Below are positions 1-10,558 of a stretch of DNA of 64,000 bases, piece after piece. Source of the stretch: Candidatus Thorarchaeota archaeon. Its GTDB lineage: Archaea; Asgardarchaeota; Thorarchaeia; Thorarchaeales; Thorarchaeaceae. Position 1 is the first letter of the stretch. Each line of letters starts with the position of its first letter. Location: contig JAFGAR010000151.1 of the NCBI GenBank assembly GCA_016933575.1, positions 1 through 64,000 on the forward strand, written 5' to 3'. Below the pieces are notes generated by a model. The model was not told the origin of the DNA, made no database searches, and saw only the letters and a list, made by a program, of their open reading frames with translations. Both the position numbers and the translations under genes were made by a program.

Positions 1-472
1 GGCTCTAACAACGAACAACCGAACTGAAGTCGTGCAGAAGCACAAGAGAAATCCCCTCTCCACAGAGGCTGTAGCATACGCATACCTTACAGTTGTGAGG
101 TAGACCTTCATGATTACTGAGCGTCTGATCAATTGGCTAGTCTCTGACCCCAGTTACATTGATTCCTGGTCACAGAGTGGTCATAGAAGTGGTCAGTCAG
201 TCTCAGAAAGAGCATATCCTGTGACCAACGTATAATGGAGTGAGAATGATAATGATGACATCAATGAATAATCGAAGTATTCTTTCAATTACAATGGAAA
301 CCAGGTCAATACAAATCCAATCTAAGGATTCCCTGATTAATACCATAATTAGCACTAGGAGTTGATTGAATGGCATTTACACTCATCAATCCAACACCAC
401 GTGTCCTCAATAGATCAAGGCCCAAGATCTCAACGGATGCAATTGCTTGGGCATATTTCAGGAGGTAAGAGG

Positions 473-1819
473 ATGACACAGGCTGAAAAAATGGATTATG
501 TGGATAACGATGATAAAAAAATGGGAATCATGCATGTTCTAGGTCATCGTGACTTCGCACGTCTCTGGTCTGGTCAACTTGTTTCGAACATTGGGACTGC
601 AATTTCGTCATTAGCTCTTTTGTTCTATGCGTATGAACTTACAGGGTCTGCAATGGCAATGGCAATTCTTGCAATGGCTGAAACTATTCCGGTCGTCATC
701 TTTGCTGGCTTTATTGGGGTCTATGTTGATAGATGGAATCGCAAGACCATAATGGTGATTTCTGATCTAATTCGTTGTGTCACAATCATACTTATTCCTC
801 TGACTATTCACTTCCCAACATTCATTCCCACAATTTATTGGGTGTACCTACTCACGTTTATTTTTGCTACAGCTAATGCGTGGTTCTTTCCAGCAAGGAG
901 TGCATCAATCCCCAATCTTGTTCAGGCTGATGAGCTAGTTTCCGCAAATTCTCTCTCTCAGATGACTTTCCAGGTTGTTCAGTTAGTTGTTCCTCCACTT
1001 GGGGGTATCCTTGTAGCACTCCTTGCACCTGACTATTTCATGGCGTTTGCTATTACATCCATGACATTTGCTATCTCTGCATTTGCTCTTGGGGGAATTG
1101 TTACAGATCTCCGACCCGACAACACAAGCGTGAGTGATGAATCACTACGTGTTCAGATAGTACAAGGCGGTAGATATGTCGTTGGCAATGCTATTCTATC
1201 ATTCCTATTCGTATTTGCAATCTTACTCGCTGGTTCATCAGGAATACTAAATGCACTTTTAATGCCATATTTCGAAGGCGAACTCGGCCTTGGTTCAGCA
1301 CAGATTGGTGTTGTCTTAAGCGTAGGTGCAGGATCTGGTGCTTTGACTGCTATCTACTTTAGCAGAAAGAAGAATCTCGACAAACCTCTCTATCTTGTGA
1401 CCTTTGCAGGACTACTTGCTGGCATTGGAGTGTTTTTCTTAGCTCTTGCGTTTGATCTGATTACAGTGATACTATCATGGGCAATGGTTGGTGCTGTAGA
1501 TGTCATACTTAACATTCCATTGACGGTTCTCATGCAGGAGCTAGTTGAAGACAAATTCCGTGGACGAGTTTTTGCTCTTCTAAATGTAGCATTCACATCT
1601 GTACAAGTCGTAGGAATGGCTATTGGCGGAGTCTGGGCTGAACTAGCTGGCTCTACAGGTCCACCACTCATTGGTGCAGCTCTAGCTTTGGTCTTTGTGT
1701 CATTAATAGGATTCATAGCTGTTGCTCAGATGAAACTTCATTCCCGTCTTCCTCAGAGAGTAGAAGAAGTATTTGTAGAAGAAGAACTGAATGTCTTTGA
1801 AGAGGTTCCTGTTTCATAA
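473..1819 (+). CDS. MFS transporter (DHA3/macrolide-efflux-like)
   Basis: About 12 hydrophobic segments, motif-A-like GVYVDRWNRKTIMVISDLIR, and FRGRVF in loop 10-11. Start placed at ATG 473 after GGAGGT (461-466) rather than ORF-track 362. Confidence 0.9.
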   Translation: MTQAEKMDYVDNDDKKMGIMHVLGHRDFARLWSGQLVSNIGTAISSLALLFYAYELTGSAMAMAILAMAETIPVVIFAGFIGVYVDRWNRKTIMVISDLIRCVTIILIPLTIHFPTFIPTIYWVYLLTFIFATANAWFFPARSASIPNLVQADELVSANSLSQMTFQVVQLVVPPLGGILVALLAPDYFMAFAITSMTFAISAFALGGIVTDLRPDNTSVSDESLRVQIVQGGRYVVGNAILSFLFVFAILLAGSSGILNALLMPYFEGELGLGSAQIGVVLSVGAGSGALTAIYFSRKKNLDKPLYLVTFAGLLAGIGVFFLALAFDLITVILSWAMVGAVDVILNIPLTVLMQELVEDKFRGRVFALLNVAFTSVQVVGMAIGGVWAELAGSTGPPLIGAALALVFVSLIGFIAVAQMKLHSRLPQRVEEVFVEEELNVFEEVPVS

Positions 1820-1820
1820 T

Positions 1821-2474
1821 TCATGTTGCTTCTGGAACAAAAGCTCTCCAGAGCTGTCGTGTTGCTGGATTGTAGACCAATCTTCCTCTGGAAACAAGAA
1901 TTATGACATAGAGAAAACGTCTCAGAAATTCATCAAAATCATCGTTATTGATAAGTTCATCAAAAATCACTTTCATCTTCAAGGGAATGCTTTCCAGAAA
2001 TCTGTCCAAGTCTTCAATGAAGACAGAATCTTCCGTGTCAAGGGTAAAACCATTTGGTAGACCTGACATCTCCGGAATTGGATCTTCTATGGACTCCTTT
2101 GACATGGCATCAATGAGTTGTACCACTCTTTGAAGAGAACTGCCCAATGAATTATGTTCAATATGCCCGATAACTACAGGTTGTTTTTGTGTTAGAAGTT
2201 TCGCCAAGTCCTTTGTTGATTTGCCCTTCAAACGGGCGACATAGACCTCAGGAGAGGCAAGTACTCTTGCAAGTTCTTGAACGCGATTCACCTTTGTTCC
2301 GAGAATTTCGTTAAGCATCTCATCGATATCGAGTCTGCTATCAAGTTTTGCTGCCAACTCCTGTAATTCTCTATATGGTTCAGATAGACGGATTTCCAAT
2401 GGATCAATCTCGCCGGAACGTGCAGCTTGCACTATTTGATAGACTCTCATGGTAAGGCTGTCATTCTCTCCCAA
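1821..2474 (-). CDS. ScpA-like kleisin subunit
   Basis: N-terminal GEIDPLEIRL resembles the ScpA GEIDPWDID motif. C-terminal FDELI...FLYVIILVSRGRL is a winged-helix-like cap. Lies 12 bp downstream of the SMC gene. Confidence 0.75.
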   Translation of the reverse strand: MGENDSLTMRVYQIVQAARSGEIDPLEIRLSEPYRELQELAAKLDSRLDIDEMLNEILGTKVNRVQELARVLASPEVYVARLKGKSTKDLAKLLTQKQPVVIGHIEHNSLGSSLQRVVQLIDAMSKESIEDPIPEMSGLPNGFTLDTEDSVFIEDLDRFLESIPLKMKVIFDELINNDDFDEFLRRFLYVIILVSRGRLVYNPATRQLWRAFVPEAT

Positions 2475-2486
2475 CTTGCATTTCTC

Positions 2487-5400
2487 CTATTGTGCTTTAA
2501 ATGTCGGACTCTCAATGATGACCGAGGGTTCGACTCCATTCGGTGACACGACTCCAAGAACCTTATCAGCATGCTTCAGAAGGTGTGTACTCTTTGCTGG
2601 CGTGAGAAGCAAAAACTGACTACGGCGTGATGCATTATGGAATAGTCTACTAACAAGTTCAGTATTTGTTGCATCAAGAAATGTATCGACTTCATCAAGT
2701 ACATAAACTGGCGCTGGATTGAATCTCTGTAAAGCTAGAATTAGAGAAATAGCGATTAGTGATTTCTCTCCTCCTGATCCTGCACTAATATCTCCAAAGC
2801 CCTCTGCCTTTATTCTAGATTTGAAGTCGACTCCATAGTCGCCATCTCTCATTGCAAGTTCAAATCTAATACTTCCAGGAAATTGCACACTACCAAGGAC
2901 TTCATTTACGCCTCTCTCAACCTTTCGTAGAGTTTCATTCATACCATTGTGATATTGTTCTCGAATACTCTTAACTGCTGATTCAGCTTCATCCAATTCT
3001 TCCTTAAGCTCAGCAACTCTCTCAATGAGAGTGACTAATCGAGATTTCAACTGCGACTCTGTATGTGCAACGCTCTCAGATACGTCCTGATAATCATCGA
3101 GTATATGTCTCAATTTGATAAGATCGTTTCTCACAATATCTAATGGCTTAACGATTTCAGGGCGGACCTTATTCTCCAATTCTTGTTTCAAGAGATCAAG
3201 GTCATATTCCATATTGGTGAGTTGTCTTTTTGATTGCAAAACCTGCAATTTTCTCTCTCTGATAATTAGGTTTAGCTCGACATTGCGCTCGCTCAAGGAG
3301 CGATACGTATCCTTGAGTGCCTTTAGTCTCTCTCGAATTGTTGTCTGCTTGTTTCTTGTCTCATCTCTGCTTGCTTTCATGACATCAATTTTTTCTAGTA
3401 TCTTGGATGCAGCACTCTTTGATTCCTTTATTTCAGAACGGAGTTCCTCGAGACTTGATGCTAACATATCCACTGTTTCAGTGGTCCTCTTTAGCTCTTG
3501 GCGTTTGATTTCTTCATCTCGTTCTGCAGCACTTGCTCTAGTGTCTACCTTCGTCAGTTCACTCTGAAGTTGTCTATGCTTAATTCTGAGTGCGGAATCT
3601 TGACCAATTAGCCTACTCCTCTCAGGGGGCTGCGAATTGTCCAGCTTTCTCAGGTCTCTCTCCGCCTTATCATACTCTGCTTGGAGGGTCTTCAGCTCGT
3701 CATCCAAGGCGACAATCCTCTCTTCCAGTTCTGGAATACTCCCAATGAGACTCTTTCTCCTATCCCAAGTTCCACTCCATCTCGTCATCTGACTTAGTAA
3801 GTCAAGAATTTCCTCTCTCTGATTTGTCAATGCATCTAGTTCTTGCATTGTGCTTGTGACCTGTTTCTGAGCTATAACGAGGTCCTTGTTCGCTCTTGAT
3901 AGCCGTGACTGAAGAGGTGCAGTAGACACCATTCCAGTTGGTTCTAATCTGGGATTACTTACAATCTTTTCATTGTCTGGAACAATCACTTGTCCTTCAA
4001 TAGAAACCGCTCGGAGACCCTCATTCAAAGCAAGACGTATTGCGGTCTTGGTTGTTCTTGTCAAGATAAAGTCTCCAAAAGCCCTTCTGAACAACAATTT
4101 GTCAATTTCATCTATGTTTAATCTGTCCCAGAGCAGTCCTTCAACTCCTGATGCATTCTTTAGAATTGGAGCCTCTGGAAGGTCATTGAGGTCTCTCAAC
4201 AGGATAATAGGTGAGGGGGCATTGGCAATGTCTCGGAGTTTCTGTAGAATTTGAAATTCAGATTCTTCAGTCACAATAAATGCGACTGCCATATTCTCAG
4301 GAAGTATTGCTTCTACAGCAGTAGCAATTGTGTCATCAGCTGTGAACAATTCCAACAGAGGACCTACGACTGAAACTAGGTTATGTTCAGCGATTGTCTC
4401 TTTTAATTCTCGTACAGTTTCTGGAACTCGCTTTGAGGTCTCAGAGAGTCTTGTGTTCAGATCGCCAATCTCTTTTTGCAATTGTGAAACAAGTGAGCTC
4501 TTTCTGAAGCGTTCCTCATTAAGCAATGCTATTTCTCTCTCTAACTGACCCTTTCTTTTAACAAGTTCCTTCTCATCTGATTTCTCCATCACTGCCCAGA
4601 CATTTGACCATTTACTCTCAATAGATTCGAGTTCAGCCTCTTCGACCTGGAGTCTCTCACGGACACTTCTTAGAAGTAGGTCCTTCCCTTCAATCTCCAC
4701 CTGGAGTGTCTTATACCTGCCATGAGTCTCTGCTCTTCTTGTATTCCAATCAGCAAAGACTTCTAGTTCTTCTCGTATCTTCGTTCTTTCTTCTTCGATG
4801 TTTTCAAGTTCTTCTCGCAGATGTTTTTGCTTCTCCATTGTTGACTCTTTGGAGGAGGTGATTCGTTCAATGTCCTCTTCCAACTTTGTCTTCTGTCTAG
4901 TCTGTGATTTCAATTGACTCTCTGTCTGCCGTAGTTCATTGACATGCTTCTTTGAATCTCCCTCGACCCGTGTTAGATTTCTCTCCTCTTCCTCAATCTT
5001 TGCGACTACACGACCGATTTCTACTTGGAGATTGGAATATTCTGTTTCAAGTTCTGTTGATTCAGCCTCATTATCCTTAATATTTAATTGAACCTGTGTC
5101 TGTTCCTCTAAAATCGCCACAAGTCCAGTTTCTTTATTCTCAATAACGCTCTTCAAATCGATTATCTTCTGATTGGTATCGTCGAAGGCTGCCCATTTGA
5201 GAGCAAGTTCAAGCGTCTTCTCTTGCTCTAATAGTGCTCTCTTCTTATCCAATCTGTCAAGGTCATGCTGCAATAATTCAATCTCTCTCTCTACAGACTT
5301 TGATTCAGTTAATGCCAAATCGAGTCTGGTTCGGCTTTGGACTACCTCCGTTTCTTGAAGGATTATTCTGTCTCTCAGGGAATCAAGACCAGTCCCCTCT

Positions 5401-5858
5401 TCAATAAGTCTTCTCACCTCATAGGGATCCATGTCTCGAATTGCATTGATTCGCTCTTGTGCAATAAATACCAGTGGATTATCAGTATCCAATCCAAAAG
5501 AGTCTACTATGACTCTCAGTTCAGCAGCCTTCACACGTCGTCCGTCGACATATGCTCTTGGGATACCATCACGGTCTATCTTCCGAAGTAATTTTCTATT
5601 TACCCCGTTTACTCTGAGATGAACCTCTACTTCGGCTGAACTTGCTCCATGTCTGATGAAATCACTCCATTTGCTATACCTATTCTCTCTCTGATTTGAA
5701 CCAAGAGCAAACTTGAGGGCATGAAAGATTGAGGTCTTGCCAGAGCCATTTGGTCCTGCGATCACAGTGAGACCTTCGGCGAACTCCACTGTTCCTTTGT
5801 AAAAGGAAAGGAAGTTTTCCAGCCGTGCAGAATCAATATGTACTCTAATAGCTCCCAA
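2487..5858 (-). CDS. SMC-family ATPase with SMC5/6-like motifs
   Basis: Walker A GPNGSGKT, Q-loop DNPLVFIAQ, two long coiled coils around a hinge (VVGPLLEL...AFIVTE), signature SGGEKS, Walker B/D-loop VLDEVDTFLD; 1123 aa. Confidence 0.93.
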   Translation of the reverse strand: MGAIRVHIDSARLENFLSFYKGTVEFAEGLTVIAGPNGSGKTSIFHALKFALGSNQRENRYSKWSDFIRHGASSAEVEVHLRVNGVNRKLLRKIDRDGIPRAYVDGRRVKAAELRVIVDSFGLDTDNPLVFIAQERINAIRDMDPYEVRRLIEEGTGLDSLRDRIILQETEVVQSRTRLDLALTESKSVEREIELLQHDLDRLDKKRALLEQEKTLELALKWAAFDDTNQKIIDLKSVIENKETGLVAILEEQTQVQLNIKDNEAESTELETEYSNLQVEIGRVVAKIEEEERNLTRVEGDSKKHVNELRQTESQLKSQTRQKTKLEEDIERITSSKESTMEKQKHLREELENIEEERTKIREELEVFADWNTRRAETHGRYKTLQVEIEGKDLLLRSVRERLQVEEAELESIESKWSNVWAVMEKSDEKELVKRKGQLEREIALLNEERFRKSSLVSQLQKEIGDLNTRLSETSKRVPETVRELKETIAEHNLVSVVGPLLELFTADDTIATAVEAILPENMAVAFIVTEESEFQILQKLRDIANAPSPIILLRDLNDLPEAPILKNASGVEGLLWDRLNIDEIDKLLFRRAFGDFILTRTTKTAIRLALNEGLRAVSIEGQVIVPDNEKIVSNPRLEPTGMVSTAPLQSRLSRANKDLVIAQKQVTSTMQELDALTNQREEILDLLSQMTRWSGTWDRRKSLIGSIPELEERIVALDDELKTLQAEYDKAERDLRKLDNSQPPERSRLIGQDSALRIKHRQLQSELTKVDTRASAAERDEEIKRQELKRTTETVDMLASSLEELRSEIKESKSAASKILEKIDVMKASRDETRNKQTTIRERLKALKDTYRSLSERNVELNLIIRERKLQVLQSKRQLTNMEYDLDLLKQELENKVRPEIVKPLDIVRNDLIKLRHILDDYQDVSESVAHTESQLKSRLVTLIERVAELKEELDEAESAVKSIREQYHNGMNETLRKVERGVNEVLGSVQFPGSIRFELAMRDGDYGVDFKSRIKAEGFGDISAGSGGEKSLIAISLILALQRFNPAPVYVLDEVDTFLDATNTELVSRLFHNASRRSQFLLLTPAKSTHLLKHADKVLGVVSPNGVEPSVIIESPTFKAQ

Positions 5859-5873
5859 ATCTTGTTCCCCTAG

Positions 5874-6944
5874 TTACCTTCCCATAATCCTCTGAAGTCT
5901 ATCACTACTTTTCTTGGCTCGAAGGAGTCTTGTTAACCTGTCCTCCGGTGTTCCATTAAGCAAGAATGGATATCTAGCTAGAAAACCACGGTCCTCCTTT
6001 GAAAGAGGCATTCCATCATTCAGTACCTCAATCACCCGTTGAGTCTCTGTGTAGTTCTCTCCTACTGCCATTAAATAGAGTTGGTCAAGGAAATCGTCAG
6101 GATACTCTTGCTCAATTTTGGTCAGTGTTGGGTGTGTCTTACCACTCACTCGTGCAATGACAGAATTGAGGATGGTTGGATTAGTTAATGGCACCACTCC
6201 ACTATTGCTAATCATATCCTCTATCTTCTCACGTGGAATTTGAACGCCTTCTTCTCGTTCCGTCATGAAGAGACTTGTTGCTAACCGTTTGACGTCAGCA
6301 AAACTCCATCCATCCGTTAGTTCAGCAACCACAGAGATATCGATATCCTCTCTCCCCTTCAAGACTTGCTCGAAGAGTCGTACTCGATCTTCTATTGAGG
6401 TACCTTCGATGACATACGTCTTGTCAAACGTTGCAAGTATATCCAAATCGAGAAACTGAGGTTGAGTAGTCGTTGCAATGACCAAGACCTCATTCTCATC
6501 CCAACTTGTTCGTGACATCTCATTTTGCAGAGATACTGATTGCGCTGTGTTTCTAGGTGCAATGTTGTCCAGTCTGTCAACCAACATGATTGTAGGTGAA
6601 TTTCTTCTAGCGAACTCAAATCCCACTCTTAGTATGTCAGGTCCCCTTTTAGACTCCTTTAGCAATTCCTCGATTCTGAATCTAACTAGTTTCAGTGGCA
6701 CTTCCCGGCAAAGATAATGAGTAAATGCTTCAAAGTCAGTTCCTGGTGGGCCAATGAGTAGAACACGGCTTCCAAATTTAATACCCTTATCTGACATATT
6801 TCGTTTCATGTCATCAAAACGTTTCATCAAGGCTTGGTGTTCCATAGCCTTTGTCACGACCGAGTACTGACTCAATCGCTCTCCCACTTGTTGTTCAGGT
6901 TCGACTAGGGTGACTGCCTCTGCAAATGATCTGTCTTCACTCAA
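5874..6944 (-). CDS. Classic-clade AAA+ protein with degenerate catalytic motifs (pseudo-ATPase)
   Basis: VLLIGPPGTDF (GK lost), MLVDRLD (DE to DR), VLVIATT, LDLDILATFD (Arg fingers lost), ELTDGWSFADV lid motif. Confidence 0.8.
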   Translation of the reverse strand: MSEDRSFAEAVTLVEPEQQVGERLSQYSVVTKAMEHQALMKRFDDMKRNMSDKGIKFGSRVLLIGPPGTDFEAFTHYLCREVPLKLVRFRIEELLKESKRGPDILRVGFEFARRNSPTIMLVDRLDNIAPRNTAQSVSLQNEMSRTSWDENEVLVIATTTQPQFLDLDILATFDKTYVIEGTSIEDRVRLFEQVLKGREDIDISVVAELTDGWSFADVKRLATSLFMTEREEGVQIPREKIEDMISNSGVVPLTNPTILNSVIARVSGKTHPTLTKIEQEYPDDFLDQLYLMAVGENYTETQRVIEVLNDGMPLSKEDRGFLARYPFLLNGTPEDRLTRLLRAKKSSDRLQRIMGR

Positions 6945-7075
6945 CTTGCAACCCCACTATTTGGCCTCCTGGTCAATTGTCTGAATGCATATTACGTCTT
7001 CGGAGTGTGAATAATTTCGCGCCGTTCAGTTTTCGCGCCCTCTACTGAGAGGTTCATAAGTGTTATACACAAACG

Positions 7076-8809
7076 ATGAAGTGGATTGTGCTACCCATGA
7101 CCCCTCCATCAGACAAACTGCGTGAGCTTGTCACGAACATCATTACTACTGTTGAAACTAGAGGTCTCTTTGTTCACTCAACAGATTTAGAGATCAAATA
7201 TAGTGAATCCAGCAGTGCTAAGTCGCAAGTAAAAACAATGAGGTTGCCACTTATTGTTGGGACGTGTGTCTTGAATGCTCTTGTTCCAAGATCTGCTATG
7301 CTCTTGGTAGGGGGTCATGGTGGAGGTAAGACTACACTTGCCAAAGTACTTGGTCGAATGATGACCGGTAAAAGTCTAGAAGCGATTGAAGATGGTATTC
7401 TACGAGGCCATCCTCAATTGACAGAAGAGAAGATGGTTGCCACATTGAAACCCGGTCCTCTAATGAAGGAGGGTGTCGAAGTCGTTGTCTGGCGGGCATT
7501 TGTTACTGGTTTCTGGAAAATCATCGATGAAGTAAATCGTCTAACACCCCATGCACAAAATATACTCCTTTCTCTTCTAGCGGAGGGAGAAGTCAAGTAT
7601 TATGACGATGTGAAACGGTGTGAGGAGTACTGTCTTTATGCCACACTAAATCCCGCAGATGCAGGAACATTCGATCTAGGTCCGCCATTCCTTGATAGAT
7701 TTGGTATTGCTGTACCAATCACTATGCCCACAGTAAGTGACTTAGAACTCATTCTTGCTTCAAGAGACGAGCGTCTCTTTGGATACGATGAGTTGTGGCA
7801 AGTTCCCGCTCTCCTCACTGAAGAGGACTTGTTGAAGATCTGGAATTTAGCTGACAAGGTCCCAGTCTCTCAAGAAGCGTCTGAGTACCTCCGAGCACTC
7901 GTTAGAGAATTTGGAGCCTGTATAAGAGCTGATAAGAGTCAATCATCAGGATTGACTGTGGAAACTGGTCTATGTGATGGGTGCCATTTCAACACTGCGA
8001 AAAGCGTGTGCAACAAAGTAATAATACCTCTTAGTGTTCGGGCGGCAAAAGATCTACATAGATATGCAAAAGCAGTTGCATGGTTGGTTGGTGCGCAGGA
8101 AGTCTCAACGGAGATAGTGAAATCAATTGCCCCCCTAGTGTTTTGGCATAGAACACGCTTTGTACGGGATGAGACTGAGAGGTCTCCCTATTATGGTAAC
8201 ATCTATGCATTTACAGAACATCTTGTCGAACTGGCCTCTGCACGATTTGCTCAGAGAGCACCTGCTGTAACAATTATCGAAGACCTGAAACAAGGAAAGG
8301 AATCAAATCAAGCACTAGAGGATCTCAAAGAGATGGCTAAGAGCGATCTCCTAGTAAGACTGGATTATGCAGAGTATGCAAAGGAATTGAAGAAGTCCCG
8401 GTATAGCAAGATGGTCCAGAATCTTGAGAAAGGGATTCGATCACGCGATGTTGAAGGGCTTACAAAAATCCATGAAGAACTCATCCGTGAGACTGATTTT
8501 CCCAACCGTAGTATGCTATTGAAACAGGTCTCTGATGCGCTTCACAAACTGACACTCACCCAGTTCGAGTTGACGTTTGAACAGTGGCAAGATATTTGGA
8601 CAACAATTGGAGTTCAATATCCCAAGCTCACTCCAATTCTCAAAGAGACCTTGGAACCACCAAAACGAAAAGTACTTCGTGTTGATGGTCTAACTCTTGT
8701 TATCTACGTTACTGGTGATTCCCCAGATTCCTCTGTTTTTCTAGAGATATCTGGAGGATCAGAAGCTGTAAGATTGAAGGAAGTGCTGAACAGTCAACTA
8801 GTTACTTAG
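7076..8809 (+). CDS. MoxR-family AAA+ ATPase
   Basis: GGHGGGKT, IIDEVNR, ATLNP, FLDRF, SVRAA (sensor 2). A Cys cluster (CIRAD...CDGC...VC) lies in the lid. Confidence 0.88.
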   Translation: MKWIVLPMTPPSDKLRELVTNIITTVETRGLFVHSTDLEIKYSESSSAKSQVKTMRLPLIVGTCVLNALVPRSAMLLVGGHGGGKTTLAKVLGRMMTGKSLEAIEDGILRGHPQLTEEKMVATLKPGPLMKEGVEVVVWRAFVTGFWKIIDEVNRLTPHAQNILLSLLAEGEVKYYDDVKRCEEYCLYATLNPADAGTFDLGPPFLDRFGIAVPITMPTVSDLELILASRDERLFGYDELWQVPALLTEEDLLKIWNLADKVPVSQEASEYLRALVREFGACIRADKSQSSGLTVETGLCDGCHFNTAKSVCNKVIIPLSVRAAKDLHRYAKAVAWLVGAQEVSTEIVKSIAPLVFWHRTRFVRDETERSPYYGNIYAFTEHLVELASARFAQRAPAVTIIEDLKQGKESNQALEDLKEMAKSDLLVRLDYAEYAKELKKSRYSKMVQNLEKGIRSRDVEGLTKIHEELIRETDFPNRSMLLKQVSDALHKLTLTQFELTFEQWQDIWTTIGVQYPKLTPILKETLEPPKRKVLRVDGLTLVIYVTGDSPDSSVFLEISGGSEAVRLKEVLNSQLVT

Positions 8810-10558
8810 GTGTGTATTATCATGGAATCTCTTTCGGATGATCATAATCGCATCAACTCACTAAAAGAGATTGCAACAGCTGCTTGGTCTCAAGCTGTGA
8901 AAGACTTCTTTCACCCACCGCTACCAGAACCAGAGGTAGGTCATGATAATGGAGTTTCAAGCTTTTTCTACATCGACTCTACCACATGGACAGTCCACCT
9001 GAATACAGCCGGTGTCCCTCTTCATATGATTGCAGAGGAAGCTGAATCTTATCTCACATCAGTCTGTCATCATGAGATTCAGCACTATCTTCTCTGTCCT
9101 TATGATGGTGTGATGAATGGAAGAATGTTTGCTGCAGCTAGAAAACATGTCAACGATGTGACTGCCATGTTTGTGTGCAATCTCTATGCTGATTTTGTTG
9201 TTGATTCAAATCTCTTGAAGCGATTTCCATATTTGACTCACGAGCGAATTAACTCGTCAATTCATGACTCCTGTCTCAGAACCACGAGTCCTAGTGAGCT
9301 CTGGAAATTAATTGTAGCCTGTTATAGATTGATGTGGGGATTCCCAATTCCACCTCAAATTATAGTAGATGATGCACTTGTAGATTTAGCAAAGCAAATT
9401 GTGGTTGTTGTTCGGAAATCAATAGACAATGAGCACCGTTGGCCAAGAGCCTGCCAGAAGATTGCAGAGATTCTTTCAGAGTGGCTTCCTAAGGAATCTA
9501 GTAGCCTTCCTGGTGTGTCCACTGTTCAAATAAAAGATGTCAACCAAGAAGATAGTGACGGTGGAAAGCATACAGTCCAAGTTCCCCTTGATGTCGATGC
9601 AATAATGGGTAGTCCAATAGAATCTAGAAATGGTGACTTAGCTAGAAAATGCTTGGACCATTCTGAGAATCAAACTCCTGAAGAGGAGATGGAACGGTTA
9701 GCCATAGATGTTGAACAACATGGTGGCGATATTCAAGATCTTCAAGGTGTCTATCTAACTACTGGTATTGGACCCAAGAGTGCTGAATGGACTCGCTTCT
9801 GGTATCGAGCCAAAGCATATGGAACTATACGATTTGAAGTAGAGTCGACAAAACTGACTGGTTCTGTGCCACTCACGCCTGAAGTCTGGAGATTGAGTGA
9901 TCCATTAGAAGAACTTGATATAGTCCAATCTCTTCAGACTTTCCCTGTATTGATTCCAAATCGGTCAACACGGAAGTGGCAACGTTTCGAAACAACTGGT
10001 ACCGAAACTTCGAAGCCACCACCTGATATGTTACTTGTGATCGATTCATCAGGTTCAATGACATGGGCGATGCGTTCGACAACCATTGCAGGAGAGTATC
10101 ATACAGCACTTGTTTCAGCTTTTGCTGCCATGGATTTCGCGTTCCGGAGGGGGTGCAAGGTCTCAGCAATCAATTTCTCAGATGGAGCAAGGACTTGTGA
10201 TTGGTCCAATGAGAGATCTTCGATAGAAGAGGTATTACTGTCCTATCAAGGAGGTGGTACCGTGACTCCTGTGAGAATGATTGTTGACAGCTGTGAAAAG
10301 GCTGAAGCTAATGTCATGGTGTTACTCATTACAGATGCTGAAGTGTCAAACTGGAAACAAATGGTAGATTCCGTTGGGATGTTGACAAAACGGAGACACA
10401 AATTATTCTTGTTCCATATTGGAGCTGGCAAAAGCACTCGTACTGTACGAATTCATCAAGCTCTAATCAAAGCTGGTGCTACAGTCATTCCCATCAAATC
10501 AGTTAACGACTTACCTGGTCTAGTTGTGAGAGAAGTGCGTTCGGTCTATGCACGGTGA
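8810..10558 (+). CDS. VWA-domain protein with N-terminal HExxH metallopeptidase-like domain (MoxR partner)
   Basis: HHEIQH and NLYADFVVD in the N-terminal half; MIDAS IDSSGSM, GGGT and ITDAE in the C-terminal half. Abuts the MoxR gene. Confidence 0.85.
   Translation: MCIIMESLSDDHNRINSLKEIATAAWSQAVKDFFHPPLPEPEVGHDNGVSSFFYIDSTTWTVHLNTAGVPLHMIAEEAESYLTSVCHHEIQHYLLCPYDGVMNGRMFAAARKHVNDVTAMFVCNLYADFVVDSNLLKRFPYLTHERINSSIHDSCLRTTSPSELWKLIVACYRLMWGFPIPPQIIVDDALVDLAKQIVVVVRKSIDNEHRWPRACQKIAEILSEWLPKESSSLPGVSTVQIKDVNQEDSDGGKHTVQVPLDVDAIMGSPIESRNGDLARKCLDHSENQTPEEEMERLAIDVEQHGGDIQDLQGVYLTTGIGPKSAEWTRFWYRAKAYGTIRFEVESTKLTGSVPLTPEVWRLSDPLEELDIVQSLQTFPVLIPNRSTRKWQRFETTGTETSKPPPDMLLVIDSSGSMTWAMRSTTIAGEYHTALVSAFAAMDFAFRRGCKVSAINFSDGARTCDWSNERSSIEEVLLSYQGGGTVTPVRMIVDSCEKAEANVMVLLITDAEVSNWKQMVDSVGMLTKRRHKLFLFHIGAGKSTRTVRIHQALIKAGATVIPIKSVNDLPGLVVREVRSVYAR

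Follow-up and report, generated by a model that had tools for sequence, protein, structure and literature searches.

A three-gene cluster on the reverse strand of a Thorarchaeal contig is probably the local version of an Asgard operon, ordered X-SMC-kleisin-KITE, for a second SMC complex beside Smc-ScpAB. The core would be the published archaeal "SMC5/6-related" complex, and X, a AAA protein that has lost its catalytic residues, would be an accessory subunit. The window analysed here is the whole stretch of 64,000 nucleotides at positions 1-64,000 of contig JAFGAR010000151.1 (GCA_016933575.1) from Candidatus Thorarchaeota archaeon. Current work looks for the origin of eukaryotic SMC complexes in duplicated SMC operons of Asgard and TACK archaea. 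Only the SMC, the kleisin, and the kite have been considered so far, and X is a fourth gene beside the SMC in the same families. If X proves to be part of the complex, it would show archaeal SMC regulation and whether Nse5/6-like regulators have an older functional counterpart. Two points about this locus are also corrected: the complex is not kite-less, and motifs that resemble those of SMC5/6 are not diagnostic.

Layout of the locus and the four-gene operon

The genes of the locus and their neighbours are as follows.
362..1819, + strand: MFS transporter gene (MFS_1, 105 bits), outside the SMC system
1821..2474, - strand: kleisin-like protein, 217 aa
2487..5858, - strand: SMC paralog, 1123 aa
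5874..6944, - strand: X, catalytically dead classical-clade AAA protein, 356 aa
6945..7075, no strand: divergent intergenic region between X and the MoxR-like gene, 131 nt, read from sequence
7076..8809, + strand: MoxR-like AAA_5 ATPase (AAA_5 and AAA_lid_2)
8810..10558, + strand: VWA protein (weak VWA_2 match)

The initial annotation described three co-oriented genes with gaps of 15 and 12 nt, and the open reading frames bear this out. The region at 6945-7075 is presumed to hold the promoter of the operon. The full operon consists of four genes, X-SMC-kleisin-KITE, with median gaps of 21, 3, and 9 nt along this order, and was seen at approximately 100 loci in Thor-, Loki-, and Jordarchaeia as well as in three further Asgard families. 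The kleisin-like gene, with its median gap of 3 nt, always lies between the SMC paralog and the KITE, a position that fits a kleisin. In several lineages, the stop codon of one operon gene overlaps the start codon of the next. The queries of this analysis recovered the operon in just 6 of the 27 Asgard families sampled. X and the SMC are carried by 22-24 of the 26 genomes of the Thor family, depending on the gene, and by 23 of 25 Loki genomes; two genomes, both from one Thor genus, lack the locus entirely. Along the locus, GC content stays flat.

The cluster had been described as lacking a KITE gene, which is literally true within the window, yet this is an artefact of the window and contig edge, and the kite lies on the abutting contig. 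In relatives, a tandem winged-helix KITE comes after the kleisin gene; in this genus the MFS gene is inserted between the two. The organism's own kite is located approximately 0.5 kb past window base 1 (G000:C45:85096-85587(-), the same as L020:1492-1998(-)), and an alignment to relative L101 places the end of contig C45 directly next to the start of contig C138. Relatives L101-L108 of genus g1 carry the MFS insertion too, with the kite beyond the MFS gene confirmed by similarity in L101, L102, L103, and L105, and the own kite shares 56-81% identity with the kites of relatives. The AF2 model of the KITE (pLDDT 85.5) has two winged helices in tandem, and almost every significant full-length match in Foldseek is a KITE: ScpB (5e-6), JetB (7e-5), MAGE-G1 (2e-4), Nse1-Nse3-Nse4 (1e-3), and, more weakly, MukE (2e-3). 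The last gene of the operon is thus shown, by predicted structure, to encode a KITE fold, which by Foldseek is nearest to ScpB rather than to Nse1/3. Apart from one Asgard kite (E 3e-4), no operon protein matches the Pfam ScpA or ScpB model, and the Pfam MAGE and Nse1 models find nothing significant in the genome.

The SMC paralog, its kleisin, and their affinity to SMC5/6

The SMC protein matches SMC_N (137 bits, residues 8-1105) and, weakly, SMC_hinge (31 bits, residues 497-610), and its ATPase motifs (GPNGSGKT, Q134, SGGE, VLDEVD) are intact, as expected of an SMC in general. A canonical prokaryotic Smc can be ruled out: the protein scores 264 bits with TIGR02169 against a curated cut-off of 729.4, its hinge is without the GX6GX3GG motif, and it falls into a separate clade. 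The missing hinge motif had been noted previously and holds here and in every family member checked, whereas the canonical Smc proteins of Thor- and Jordarchaeia have it. A separate canonical locus, proposed as a check, exists as smc-scpA-scpB on contig C153 of the same genome (Smc, 876 bits). The paralog falls outside canonical Asgard Smc: its family is monophyletic with an SH-aLRT of 99 in a tree restricted to Asgard sequences, where canonical Smc receives 97. In other Asgard families, the orthologs of this SMC reach 200-325 bits, and the canonical Smc of the same genomes approximately 120. At the level of sequence, the protein is shown to be a deep paralog with intact ATPase motifs, and a second SMC-kleisin system distinct from canonical Smc-ScpAB is supported.

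The kleisin-like protein of 217 aa comprises an N-terminal helical part and a C-terminal winged helix. It had been called ScpA-like, a description that the sequence supports only weakly. Its C-terminal winged helix aligns in register with that of the genome's own ScpA by hhalign (E 8e-4, probability 24%). The profile of the protein reaches the C-terminal winged helices of ScpA (4i99_C, 5xns_C) at E 0.07-0.2, and no Pfam model matches it, including Nse4_C (PF08743), in the genome or in 35 family members. The nearest named language-model clusters, taken as a lead only, carry Nse4_C (0.93 for Bathyarchaeota, 0.84 for eukaryotic Nse4), with ScpA at 0.81.

The SMC had been assigned to SMC5/6 from the motifs DNPLVFIAQ in the Q-loop, VGPL...EAIL...AFIVTE in the hinge, and DYGVDFKSR...GSGGE before the signature, all of which are indeed found in the protein. 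The Q-loop is not specific to SMC5/6, as its best match among solved structures is condensin Smc2 (NNPNFLIMQG) and SMC6 is not among the matches. The SMC family profile scores 246/231 bits for SMC2, 240/234 for SMC3, 222 for SMC4, 175/167 for SMC5, and 166/164 for SMC6. With this structure match and these profile scores, the motif-based assignment is not diagnostic. Such observations could also indicate that the SMC is an old Asgard Smc paralog without special kinship to SMC5/6, that its published sister position results from long branches, and that the operon is a lineage-specific second condensin-like system. The higher scores for SMC2, SMC3, and SMC4, the Smc2-like Q-loop, and the proximity of the kite to ScpB agree with this explanation, as does the finding that monophyly of all eukaryotic SMCs is not rejected (p-AU 0.317; van Hooff et al., bioRxiv 10.1101/2024.01.07.573240). 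We nevertheless regard it as rather unlikely. The N-terminal head of the paralog finds SMC6 at 40.6 bits, level with SMC1, whereas SMC5/6 goes entirely undetected with the N-terminal head of the genome's canonical Smc. The hinge without the glycine motif and the Nse4_C clusters nearest to the kleisin also speak against it. In addition, two independent phylogenies group such archaeal paralogs with SMC5/6, their kleisins with Nse4, and their kites with Nse1/3 (PMC8665677; bioRxiv 10.1101/2024.01.07.573240).

The catalytically dead AAA protein X and its gene neighbours

X is composed of a AAA alpha/beta domain, a lid, and a conserved helical C-terminal domain of 85 residues (residues ~272-356). 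It matches PF00004 at 45 bits as well as AAA_lid_3, its AF2 model is well folded (pLDDT 86.6), and the best Foldseek matches are FtsH, PAN, p97, and Vps4 at 16-23% identity. Its motifs were judged by alignment to an active AAA protein encoded on the same contig. Walker A reads GPPGTDFE in place of GPPGTGKT, Walker B DRLD versus DELD, sensor-1 TTTQP versus ATNRP, and the Arg-finger segment ILATFD versus RRPGRFD. The Walker A Lys, the Walker B Glu, the sensor-1 Asn, and both Arg fingers are therefore replaced, both here and across 35 family members, and the aromatic pore loop is also lost. The first gene had been described as encoding a pseudo-AAA protein, and this holds: the AAA fold is kept and all catalytic residues are gone. 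An active classical AAA+ ATPase is ruled out by the replacement of all nucleotide-binding and hydrolysis residues.

The C-terminal domain of X appears to be private to this group. Its profile retrieves only 110 clusters among 1.84 billion proteins; the organism-named members are all labelled Promethearchaeota, and this search detected no eukaryotic homolog of X. The domain has no match in the PDB or the Atlas. Of the 151 Asgard genomes, 53 encode it, each a single time, and it is confined to the same six Asgard families that carry the SMC paralog. X is a single-copy gene directly upstream of the paralogous SMC in 99 of 103 loci; the remaining four comprise three contig edges and one mis-picked open reading frame, at which manual inspection did show X. 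Among the X proteins examined, the three that diverge most are each encoded directly upstream of SMC-kleisin-kite as well. The synteny proposed earlier as a check is thus kept across the whole order Thorarchaeales and beyond. Because the SMC lies outside canonical Smc and the AAA gene is syntenic, two of the three outcomes that the initial annotation named as counting against it (a third being the absence of a predicted or observed interface) did not occur.

A MoxR-like gene adjoins the operon in 21 of 21 Thorarchaeales loci and a VWA gene in 18, the other loci ending before that point. Both genes are directly upstream of the operon on the same strand in Jordarchaeales and family f8. Neither was found in the Loki or f24 loci searched, and Loki genomes hold the MoxR-VWA pair elsewhere. 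As judged by gene order, the pair are conserved neighbours and possibly accessory genes. Dead AAA modules paired with active ones exist, e.g. the D subunit of Mg-chelatase. X could stand outside the SMC complex and act elsewhere, for example as an inactive partner or an adaptor. It would then serve the MoxR-like ATPase and the VWA protein next to it, which flank or precede X in Thorarchaeales, Jordarchaeales, and f8, or Cdc48/PAN-type AAA rings. Such a role outside the complex is improbable, as the 80 Loki loci are without a nearby MoxR-VWA pair and X is still directly before the SMC wherever upstream sequence exists. Moreover, X occurs only in families that have the SMC paralog, and the short gaps and overlapping codons described above also connect it to the operon.

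If the operon encodes a second SMC complex, the SMC would form a homodimer because only a single SMC gene is present. The kleisin would bridge the SMC heads and carry a KITE dimer, and the ring would use ATP for DNA entrapment or extrusion like other SMC-kleisin-KITE complexes. X would be a candidate non-catalytic accessory subunit or dedicated loader or regulator, whose conserved lid and helical C-terminal domain may mediate a role comparable to that of eukaryotic Nse5/6. In Thor- and Jordarchaeia, X may also link the complex to the neighbouring MoxR-VWA pair. A more specific version of this proposal can be put forward only tentatively. X would be part of the complex in stoichiometric amounts, or its dedicated loader, and as a fourth component specific to Asgard archaea it would control head engagement or loading. 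The archaeal ancestor of eukaryotic SMC5/6 would already have had such a regulator, neither kleisin nor KITE, that was later lost or replaced by Nse5/6, and X may couple the ring to a MoxR-VWA remodeller in Thor- and Jordarchaeia.

Comparison with known systems

Classical-clade AAA proteins (Cdc48/p97, PAN, FtsH, Vps4) share the fold and the lid with X, but X is without their nucleotide-binding and hydrolysis residues and their aromatic pore loop, and has its own C-terminal helical domain.

Wadjet (JetABCD) and MukBEF also combine an SMC-like ATPase with a kleisin and a KITE, and the structural matches of the kite include JetB and MukE; however, there is no JetD or Toprim nuclease here and no MukB-type SMC. 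An operon that acts against plasmids or viruses, like Wadjet, MksBEFG, or Lamassu, instead of organising the chromosome is very improbable. It would agree with the weak generic PADLOC matches of the SMC (LmuB, 103 bits) and X (IetA, 41 bits), with the absence of the locus from the two Thor genomes, and with descriptions of viral DNA restriction by eukaryotic SMC5/6. On the other hand, no locus contains a JetA, JetB, JetD, LmuA, or nuclease gene, the kleisin and kite have no PADLOC match, and the genes show single copy, stable synteny, a vertical-looking phylogeny, and the flat GC content. Membership in Wadjet or Lamassu is rejected on this gene content, the PADLOC similarity being generic.

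Prokaryotic Smc-ScpAB resembles the Asgard system in its homodimeric SMC, short kleisin, and tandem winged-helix kite, for which ScpB is the best Foldseek match. It differs in that the Smc model is missed widely by the paralog (264 vs 729 bits) and the real Smc-ScpAB is encoded elsewhere in the genome. Eukaryotic Smc5/6 with Nse4, Nse1, and Nse3 has the same SMC-kleisin-KITE architecture and a hinge without the canonical glycine motif, and the Nse4_C clusters nearest to the kleisin are a further likeness, as a lead only. The Asgard operon has one SMC gene in place of the SMC5-SMC6 heterodimer and one kite in place of Nse1 and Nse3, its SMC profile is lower on SMC5/6 than on SMC2/3, and X has no detectable eukaryotic homolog. 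With one SMC and one kite per locus and no significant Nse1 or MAGE match in the genome, the operon does not encode a eukaryotic Smc5/6 holocomplex.

The closest known system is the archaeal SMC5/6-related complex. The initial annotation proposed an undescribed complex, but a second archaeal SMC with its own kleisin and Nse1/3-like kite in one operon is already published (PMC8665677; bioRxiv 10.1101/2024.01.07.573240). An SMC-kleisin-kite operon is known from Prometheoarchaeum (genes 495-497), and an SMC5/6-related SMC, an Nse4-related kleisin, and an Nse1/3-related kite are tabulated as adjacent in Jordarchaeum (van Hooff et al., bioRxiv 10.1101/2024.01.07.573240; Yoshinaga & Inagaki, PMC8665677). 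The SMC5/6 label itself comes from published phylogenies that did not reject monophyly of all eukaryotic SMCs. Matched on gene content and order, the operon agrees with this complex: a second SMC in its own operon with the order SMC, short kleisin, and non-ScpB-like kite, in Lokiarchaeia, Jordarchaeia, and Thorarchaeia, with the SMC presumably a homodimer. It differs in that the kite is split from the operon by the MFS gene in this genus. The gene upstream of the SMC is not mentioned in either publication (PMC8665677; bioRxiv 10.1101/2024.01.07.573240), where "AAA" is absent from the main text and, outside taxon names, from the supplements. X therefore seems to be a new component beside the known SMC-kleisin-KITE core.

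The X-SMC-kleisin operon and the SMC paralog

Three co-oriented genes spanning 1821-6944 of the window were read as ORFs separated by gaps of 15 and 12 nt, largely as the initial annotation had observed, and GC content is flat over the region. The genes and their divergent neighbours are as follows.

5874-6944, minus strand: X, an AAA-like protein of 356 aa (ORF; PF00004, 45 bits)
2487-5858, minus strand: SMC, 1123 aa (ORF; SMC_N 137 bits, weak SMC_hinge match of 31 bits)
1821-2474, minus strand: kleisin-like protein, 217 aa (ORF; without Pfam or PDB sequence match)
7076-10558, plus strand: MoxR-like AAA_5 ATPase (577 aa) and VWA protein (582 aa), divergent from X

The ATPase motifs of the window SMC are all intact (GPNGSGKT, Q-loop Q134, SGGE and VLDEVD). 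It scores 264 bits against the curated archaeal Smc model, for which the cut-off is 729, and its hinge is missing the GX6GX3GG motif that is present in canonical thorarchaeal and jordarchaeal Smc. A separate canonical smc-scpAB locus, which the initial annotation had proposed looking for, is found in the same genome on contig C153, where Smc (1203 aa, 876 bits), ScpA (235 aa, with Pfam ScpA and Rad21_Rec8 matches) and ScpB (111 bits) are consecutive. The two SMC proteins share approximately 32% identity, confined to the heads. A small Roadblock/LC7-like protein with a weak Pfam match is encoded just upstream of canonical smc-scpA-scpB (extracted locus L001:5256-5624, minus strand).

The two types were compared in an Asgard-only maximum likelihood tree of 37 SMC sequences (LG+C20 PMSF, quick search, support from SH-aLRT only). 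The outgroup was another protein of the window's genome, an ATPase of the SMC superfamily (772 aa; L003, G000:C105:22039-25995) whose N-terminal head resembles Rad50/SMC. The new family (25 rows, SH-aLRT 99) stands apart from canonical Smc (8 rows, 97), and a third type, seen in Lokiarchaeia and about 1,480 aa long, makes up a clade of its own next to canonical Smc (L121 = G147:C2, L122 = G104:C54, L123 = G049:C14). Because the new family and canonical Smc separate, the window SMC does not branch inside canonical archaeal Smc in this tree, and the SMC gene was duplicated before Thor-, Loki- and Jordarchaeia diverged. The separate SMC system that had been claimed is thus borne out, both by the canonical Smc-ScpAB elsewhere in the genome and by the distinct clades.

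The initial annotation had also assigned the SMC to the SMC5/6 type from its motifs. Affinity to SMC5/6 was gauged by scores against solved structures, the tree being limited to Asgard sequences. The N-terminal head of canonical Smc matched Pyrococcus Smc (219 bits), SMC2 (97) and SMC3 (95), with no hit to SMC5 or SMC6, and that of the window SMC is roughly equidistant from Rad50 (52), Smc (46), SMC1 (42) and SMC6 (41). A 23-sequence profile of the new family scores higher with SMC2 (246/231 bits) and SMC3 (240/234) than with SMC5 (175/167) and SMC6 (166/164), with SMC4 at 222 and SMC1 at 181. The Q-loop segment finds its best match in condensin Smc2, which likewise has NP before Q. The motif resemblance to SMC5/6 is therefore not diagnostic, and the argument drawn from it for a possible SMC5/6 relationship does not hold.

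Distribution and neighbourhood of the operon

Kleisin-like protein, X and SMC were searched for in 151 Asgard genomes. Within the window's family the kleisin is found in 24 of 26 genomes and X and SMC in 23 each; all three occur in the sister family f2, and the order X-SMC-kleisin is invariant in both families. Distant SMC orthologs (full-length matches, 23-30% identity, 199-325 bits) are present in f7 (Jordarchaeales), f8, f9 (Promethearchaeia, i.e. Lokiarchaeia) and f24, where canonical Smc of the same genomes reaches only about 120 bits. In all, 103 loci were extracted; the 80 Loki loci were drawn from a Loki-only SMC alignment, Prometheoarchaeum not being among them. The AAA gene is syntenic in relatives: an X-type gene lies directly upstream of SMC on the same strand in 99/103 loci (median gap 21 nt). 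Three of the other four have SMC at a contig edge, and in the last, L012, another large ORF was picked by the script and X was seen by hand. A kleisin-sized gene (~216 aa) follows 3' of SMC with a median gap of 3 nt, and a fourth gene (~171 aa) follows 3' of the kleisin with a median gap of 9 nt. No counterpart of X, kleisin, kite, the MoxR-like gene or the SMC paralog turned up in two genomes of genus g5 in the window's family, G046 (96% complete) and G081 (88%), which is consistent with loss of the entire locus in that genus.

The MoxR-like gene adjoins the operon in 21/21 Thorarchaeales loci, as does the VWA gene in 18 of the 21, the locus end being reached first in the rest. In Jordarchaeales and f8 the pair is co-oriented with the operon and directly upstream of it. 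In the 80 Loki loci both genes are missing from the vicinity of the operon; Loki has the pair elsewhere in the genome, in one case beside a canonical-type SMC. MoxR-VWA is thus a possible lineage-limited accessory to the X-SMC operon. One Loki MoxR-like ortholog (G104:C2:81573-83309, minus strand) is read through three in-frame TAA codons; pseudogenization, misassembly or another cause may account for this.

Kleisin-like and KITE genes

The 217-aa protein is probably a kleisin of a putative Nse4-related archaeal type, a reading based on profile, hhalign and ESM Atlas results together with its position between SMC and KITE. Its family profile matches the C-terminal winged helices of ScpA weakly (4i99_C, E 0.07; 5xns_C, E 0.2), and in an hhalign alignment its last 60 residues line up in register with the ScpA winged helix of the same genome (E 8e-4, probability 24%). 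After its own family, the ESM Atlas feature search returned a Bathyarchaeota cluster (0.93, 197 shared features) in which 18% of members carry Nse4_C, followed by eukaryotic Nse4 (0.84), with ScpA clusters lower (0.81 and 0.79). A Pfam scan of the kleisin members returned no Nse4_C or ScpA match.

The initial annotation had stated that no KITE gene is present, a reading that arose as an artefact of the window edge and a gene insertion. In thorarchaeal genera other than the window's, a gene of 165-179 aa lies directly 3' of the kleisin. The window's genus alone has an oppositely oriented MFS transporter gene (window 362-1819, plus strand; loci L101-L108) between kleisin and kite, which splits the kite off the operon and leaves it with its own upstream region. 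The ortholog of the window's genome lies on contig C45 (85096-85587, minus strand), 167 nt from the contig end, and is 56% identical to the kite of genome G075 and 81% to that of G108. The G108 locus joins the two contigs: its positions 460-1351 align with the terminal 900 nt of C45 and its positions 1345-2232 with the initial 900 nt of the window contig, which puts the kite some 0.5 kb outside the window, past base 1.

The fourth gene is identified as a KITE by its modelled fold. The AlphaFold2 model (pLDDT 85.5) has two winged-helix domains, and nearly every significant full-length hit in Foldseek is a KITE protein (ScpB at 5e-6, JetB, MAGE-G1/Nse3 and Nse1-Nse3-Nse4), with MukE weaker (2e-3). 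Pfam gave generic winged-helix matches, three weak DUF4194 matches and one ScpB match among the kite members and nothing else, and the MAGE, SMC_Nse1, Nse4_C and ScpA models found nothing significant at this locus in the window's genome.

X as a candidate fourth component

The AlphaFold2 model of X (pLDDT 86.6) has FtsH, PAN, p97 and Vps4 as structural neighbours. X was aligned with an active Cdc48-like AAA protein of the same contig, and the differences in the catalytic motifs are summarized below.

Catalytic motifs of the active AAA protein and of X
Walker A: GPPGTGKT in the active AAA; GPPGTDFE in X
Walker B: DELD in the active AAA; DRLD in X
Sensor 1: ATNRP in the active AAA; TTTQP in X
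Arg-finger region: RRPGRFD in the active AAA; ILATFD in X

The aromatic pore loop is also lost, and X is, judged from these motifs, a catalytically dead AAA protein, as had been claimed along with its adjacency to SMC. GTD in place of Walker A is common to Thor and Loki X, and catalytic loss is therefore old. The Pfam AAA model still recognises X in Thor only; Jord and f8 proteins (276-315 aa) retain AAA_lid_3, and Loki proteins (~416-430 aa) have no Pfam match. Two parts are conserved in an alignment of 35 X proteins, the lid (R187, T210, W213) and a helical domain of 85 residues at the C-terminus (Q288, Y290, A343, K344).

A profile of this C-terminal domain found only 110 proteins at E up to 1e-3 among 1.84 billion representative proteins. 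The domain mostly ends proteins of up to 630 aa, the shorter of which look like fragments, and all members with an organism name are labelled Promethearchaeota. The three most divergent X proteins looked up (623, 603 and 492 aa) are each encoded directly upstream of SMC and two smaller genes (218-260 aa and 187-195 aa). Among the 151 genomes the domain occurs exactly once in 53, in families f1, f2, f7, f8, f9 and f24, which are the families with this SMC paralog, and the remaining 21 families of the sample yielded no match. Taken together, co-distribution and adjacency argue strongly, on comparative grounds, for a functional link between X and SMC, though not for contact. A word-indexed search with Jordarchaeal X returned Jordarchaeales alone, and the domain had no meaningful match among PDB sequences or in the ESM Atlas, Vps4_C being rejected as a relative at 0.78, below the useful mark. 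Protein P0315 was set aside as an X-domain/SMC fusion; its domain lies in mid-protein and its tail is not SMC-like. Locus L135 (GCA_054386115.1, JBQSHE010000127.1), which carries a divergent X-SMC-kleisin-kite operon, also encodes, two genes farther upstream, a HEAT-repeat protein of 1,209 aa (1503-5132, plus strand) that weakly matches Pfam Cnd1, a condensin subunit; this may be chance. HAWK-like proteins are reported to be lacking in prokaryotes.

The complex had been presented as undescribed. An "SMC5/6-related aSMC" has been defined in archaea of the TACK and Asgard groups and a few others (Yoshinaga & Inagaki, PMC8665677). In Prometheoarchaeum, SMC, kleisin and kite are genes 495-497, and the accompanying table places a kleisin related to Nse4 and a kite related to Nse1/3 next to SMC in Jordarchaeum, and gives for a thorarchaeote an Nse1/3-related kite that is not adjacent to SMC (van Hooff et al., bioRxiv 10.1101/2024.01.07.573240). 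The same study did not reject monophyly of all eukaryotic SMCs (p-AU 0.317). The published architecture and lineages are those of the operon traced here, and the SMC-kleisin-KITE core is therefore already known. An AAA-like gene has no mention in the text or supplements of van Hooff et al., the literature search returned nothing further, and the novelty of the locus resides in X. A defence-system reading of the operon was rejected from PADLOC results and conservation.

By analogy with Smc-ScpAB, MukBEF and Smc5/6, the SMC would homodimerize via its hinge, the kleisin, carrying a KITE dimer, would connect one SMC head at its neck with the other at its cap, and ATP binding and hydrolysis would power DNA entrapment or loop extrusion. 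For SMC and eukaryogenesis researchers, X offers a defined and testable candidate for a fourth component. It may act through its lid and C-terminal domain as a non-catalytic accessory subunit or a loader/regulator, a role to which we tentatively give somewhat less than an even chance, and which would be functionally comparable to that of Nse5/6.
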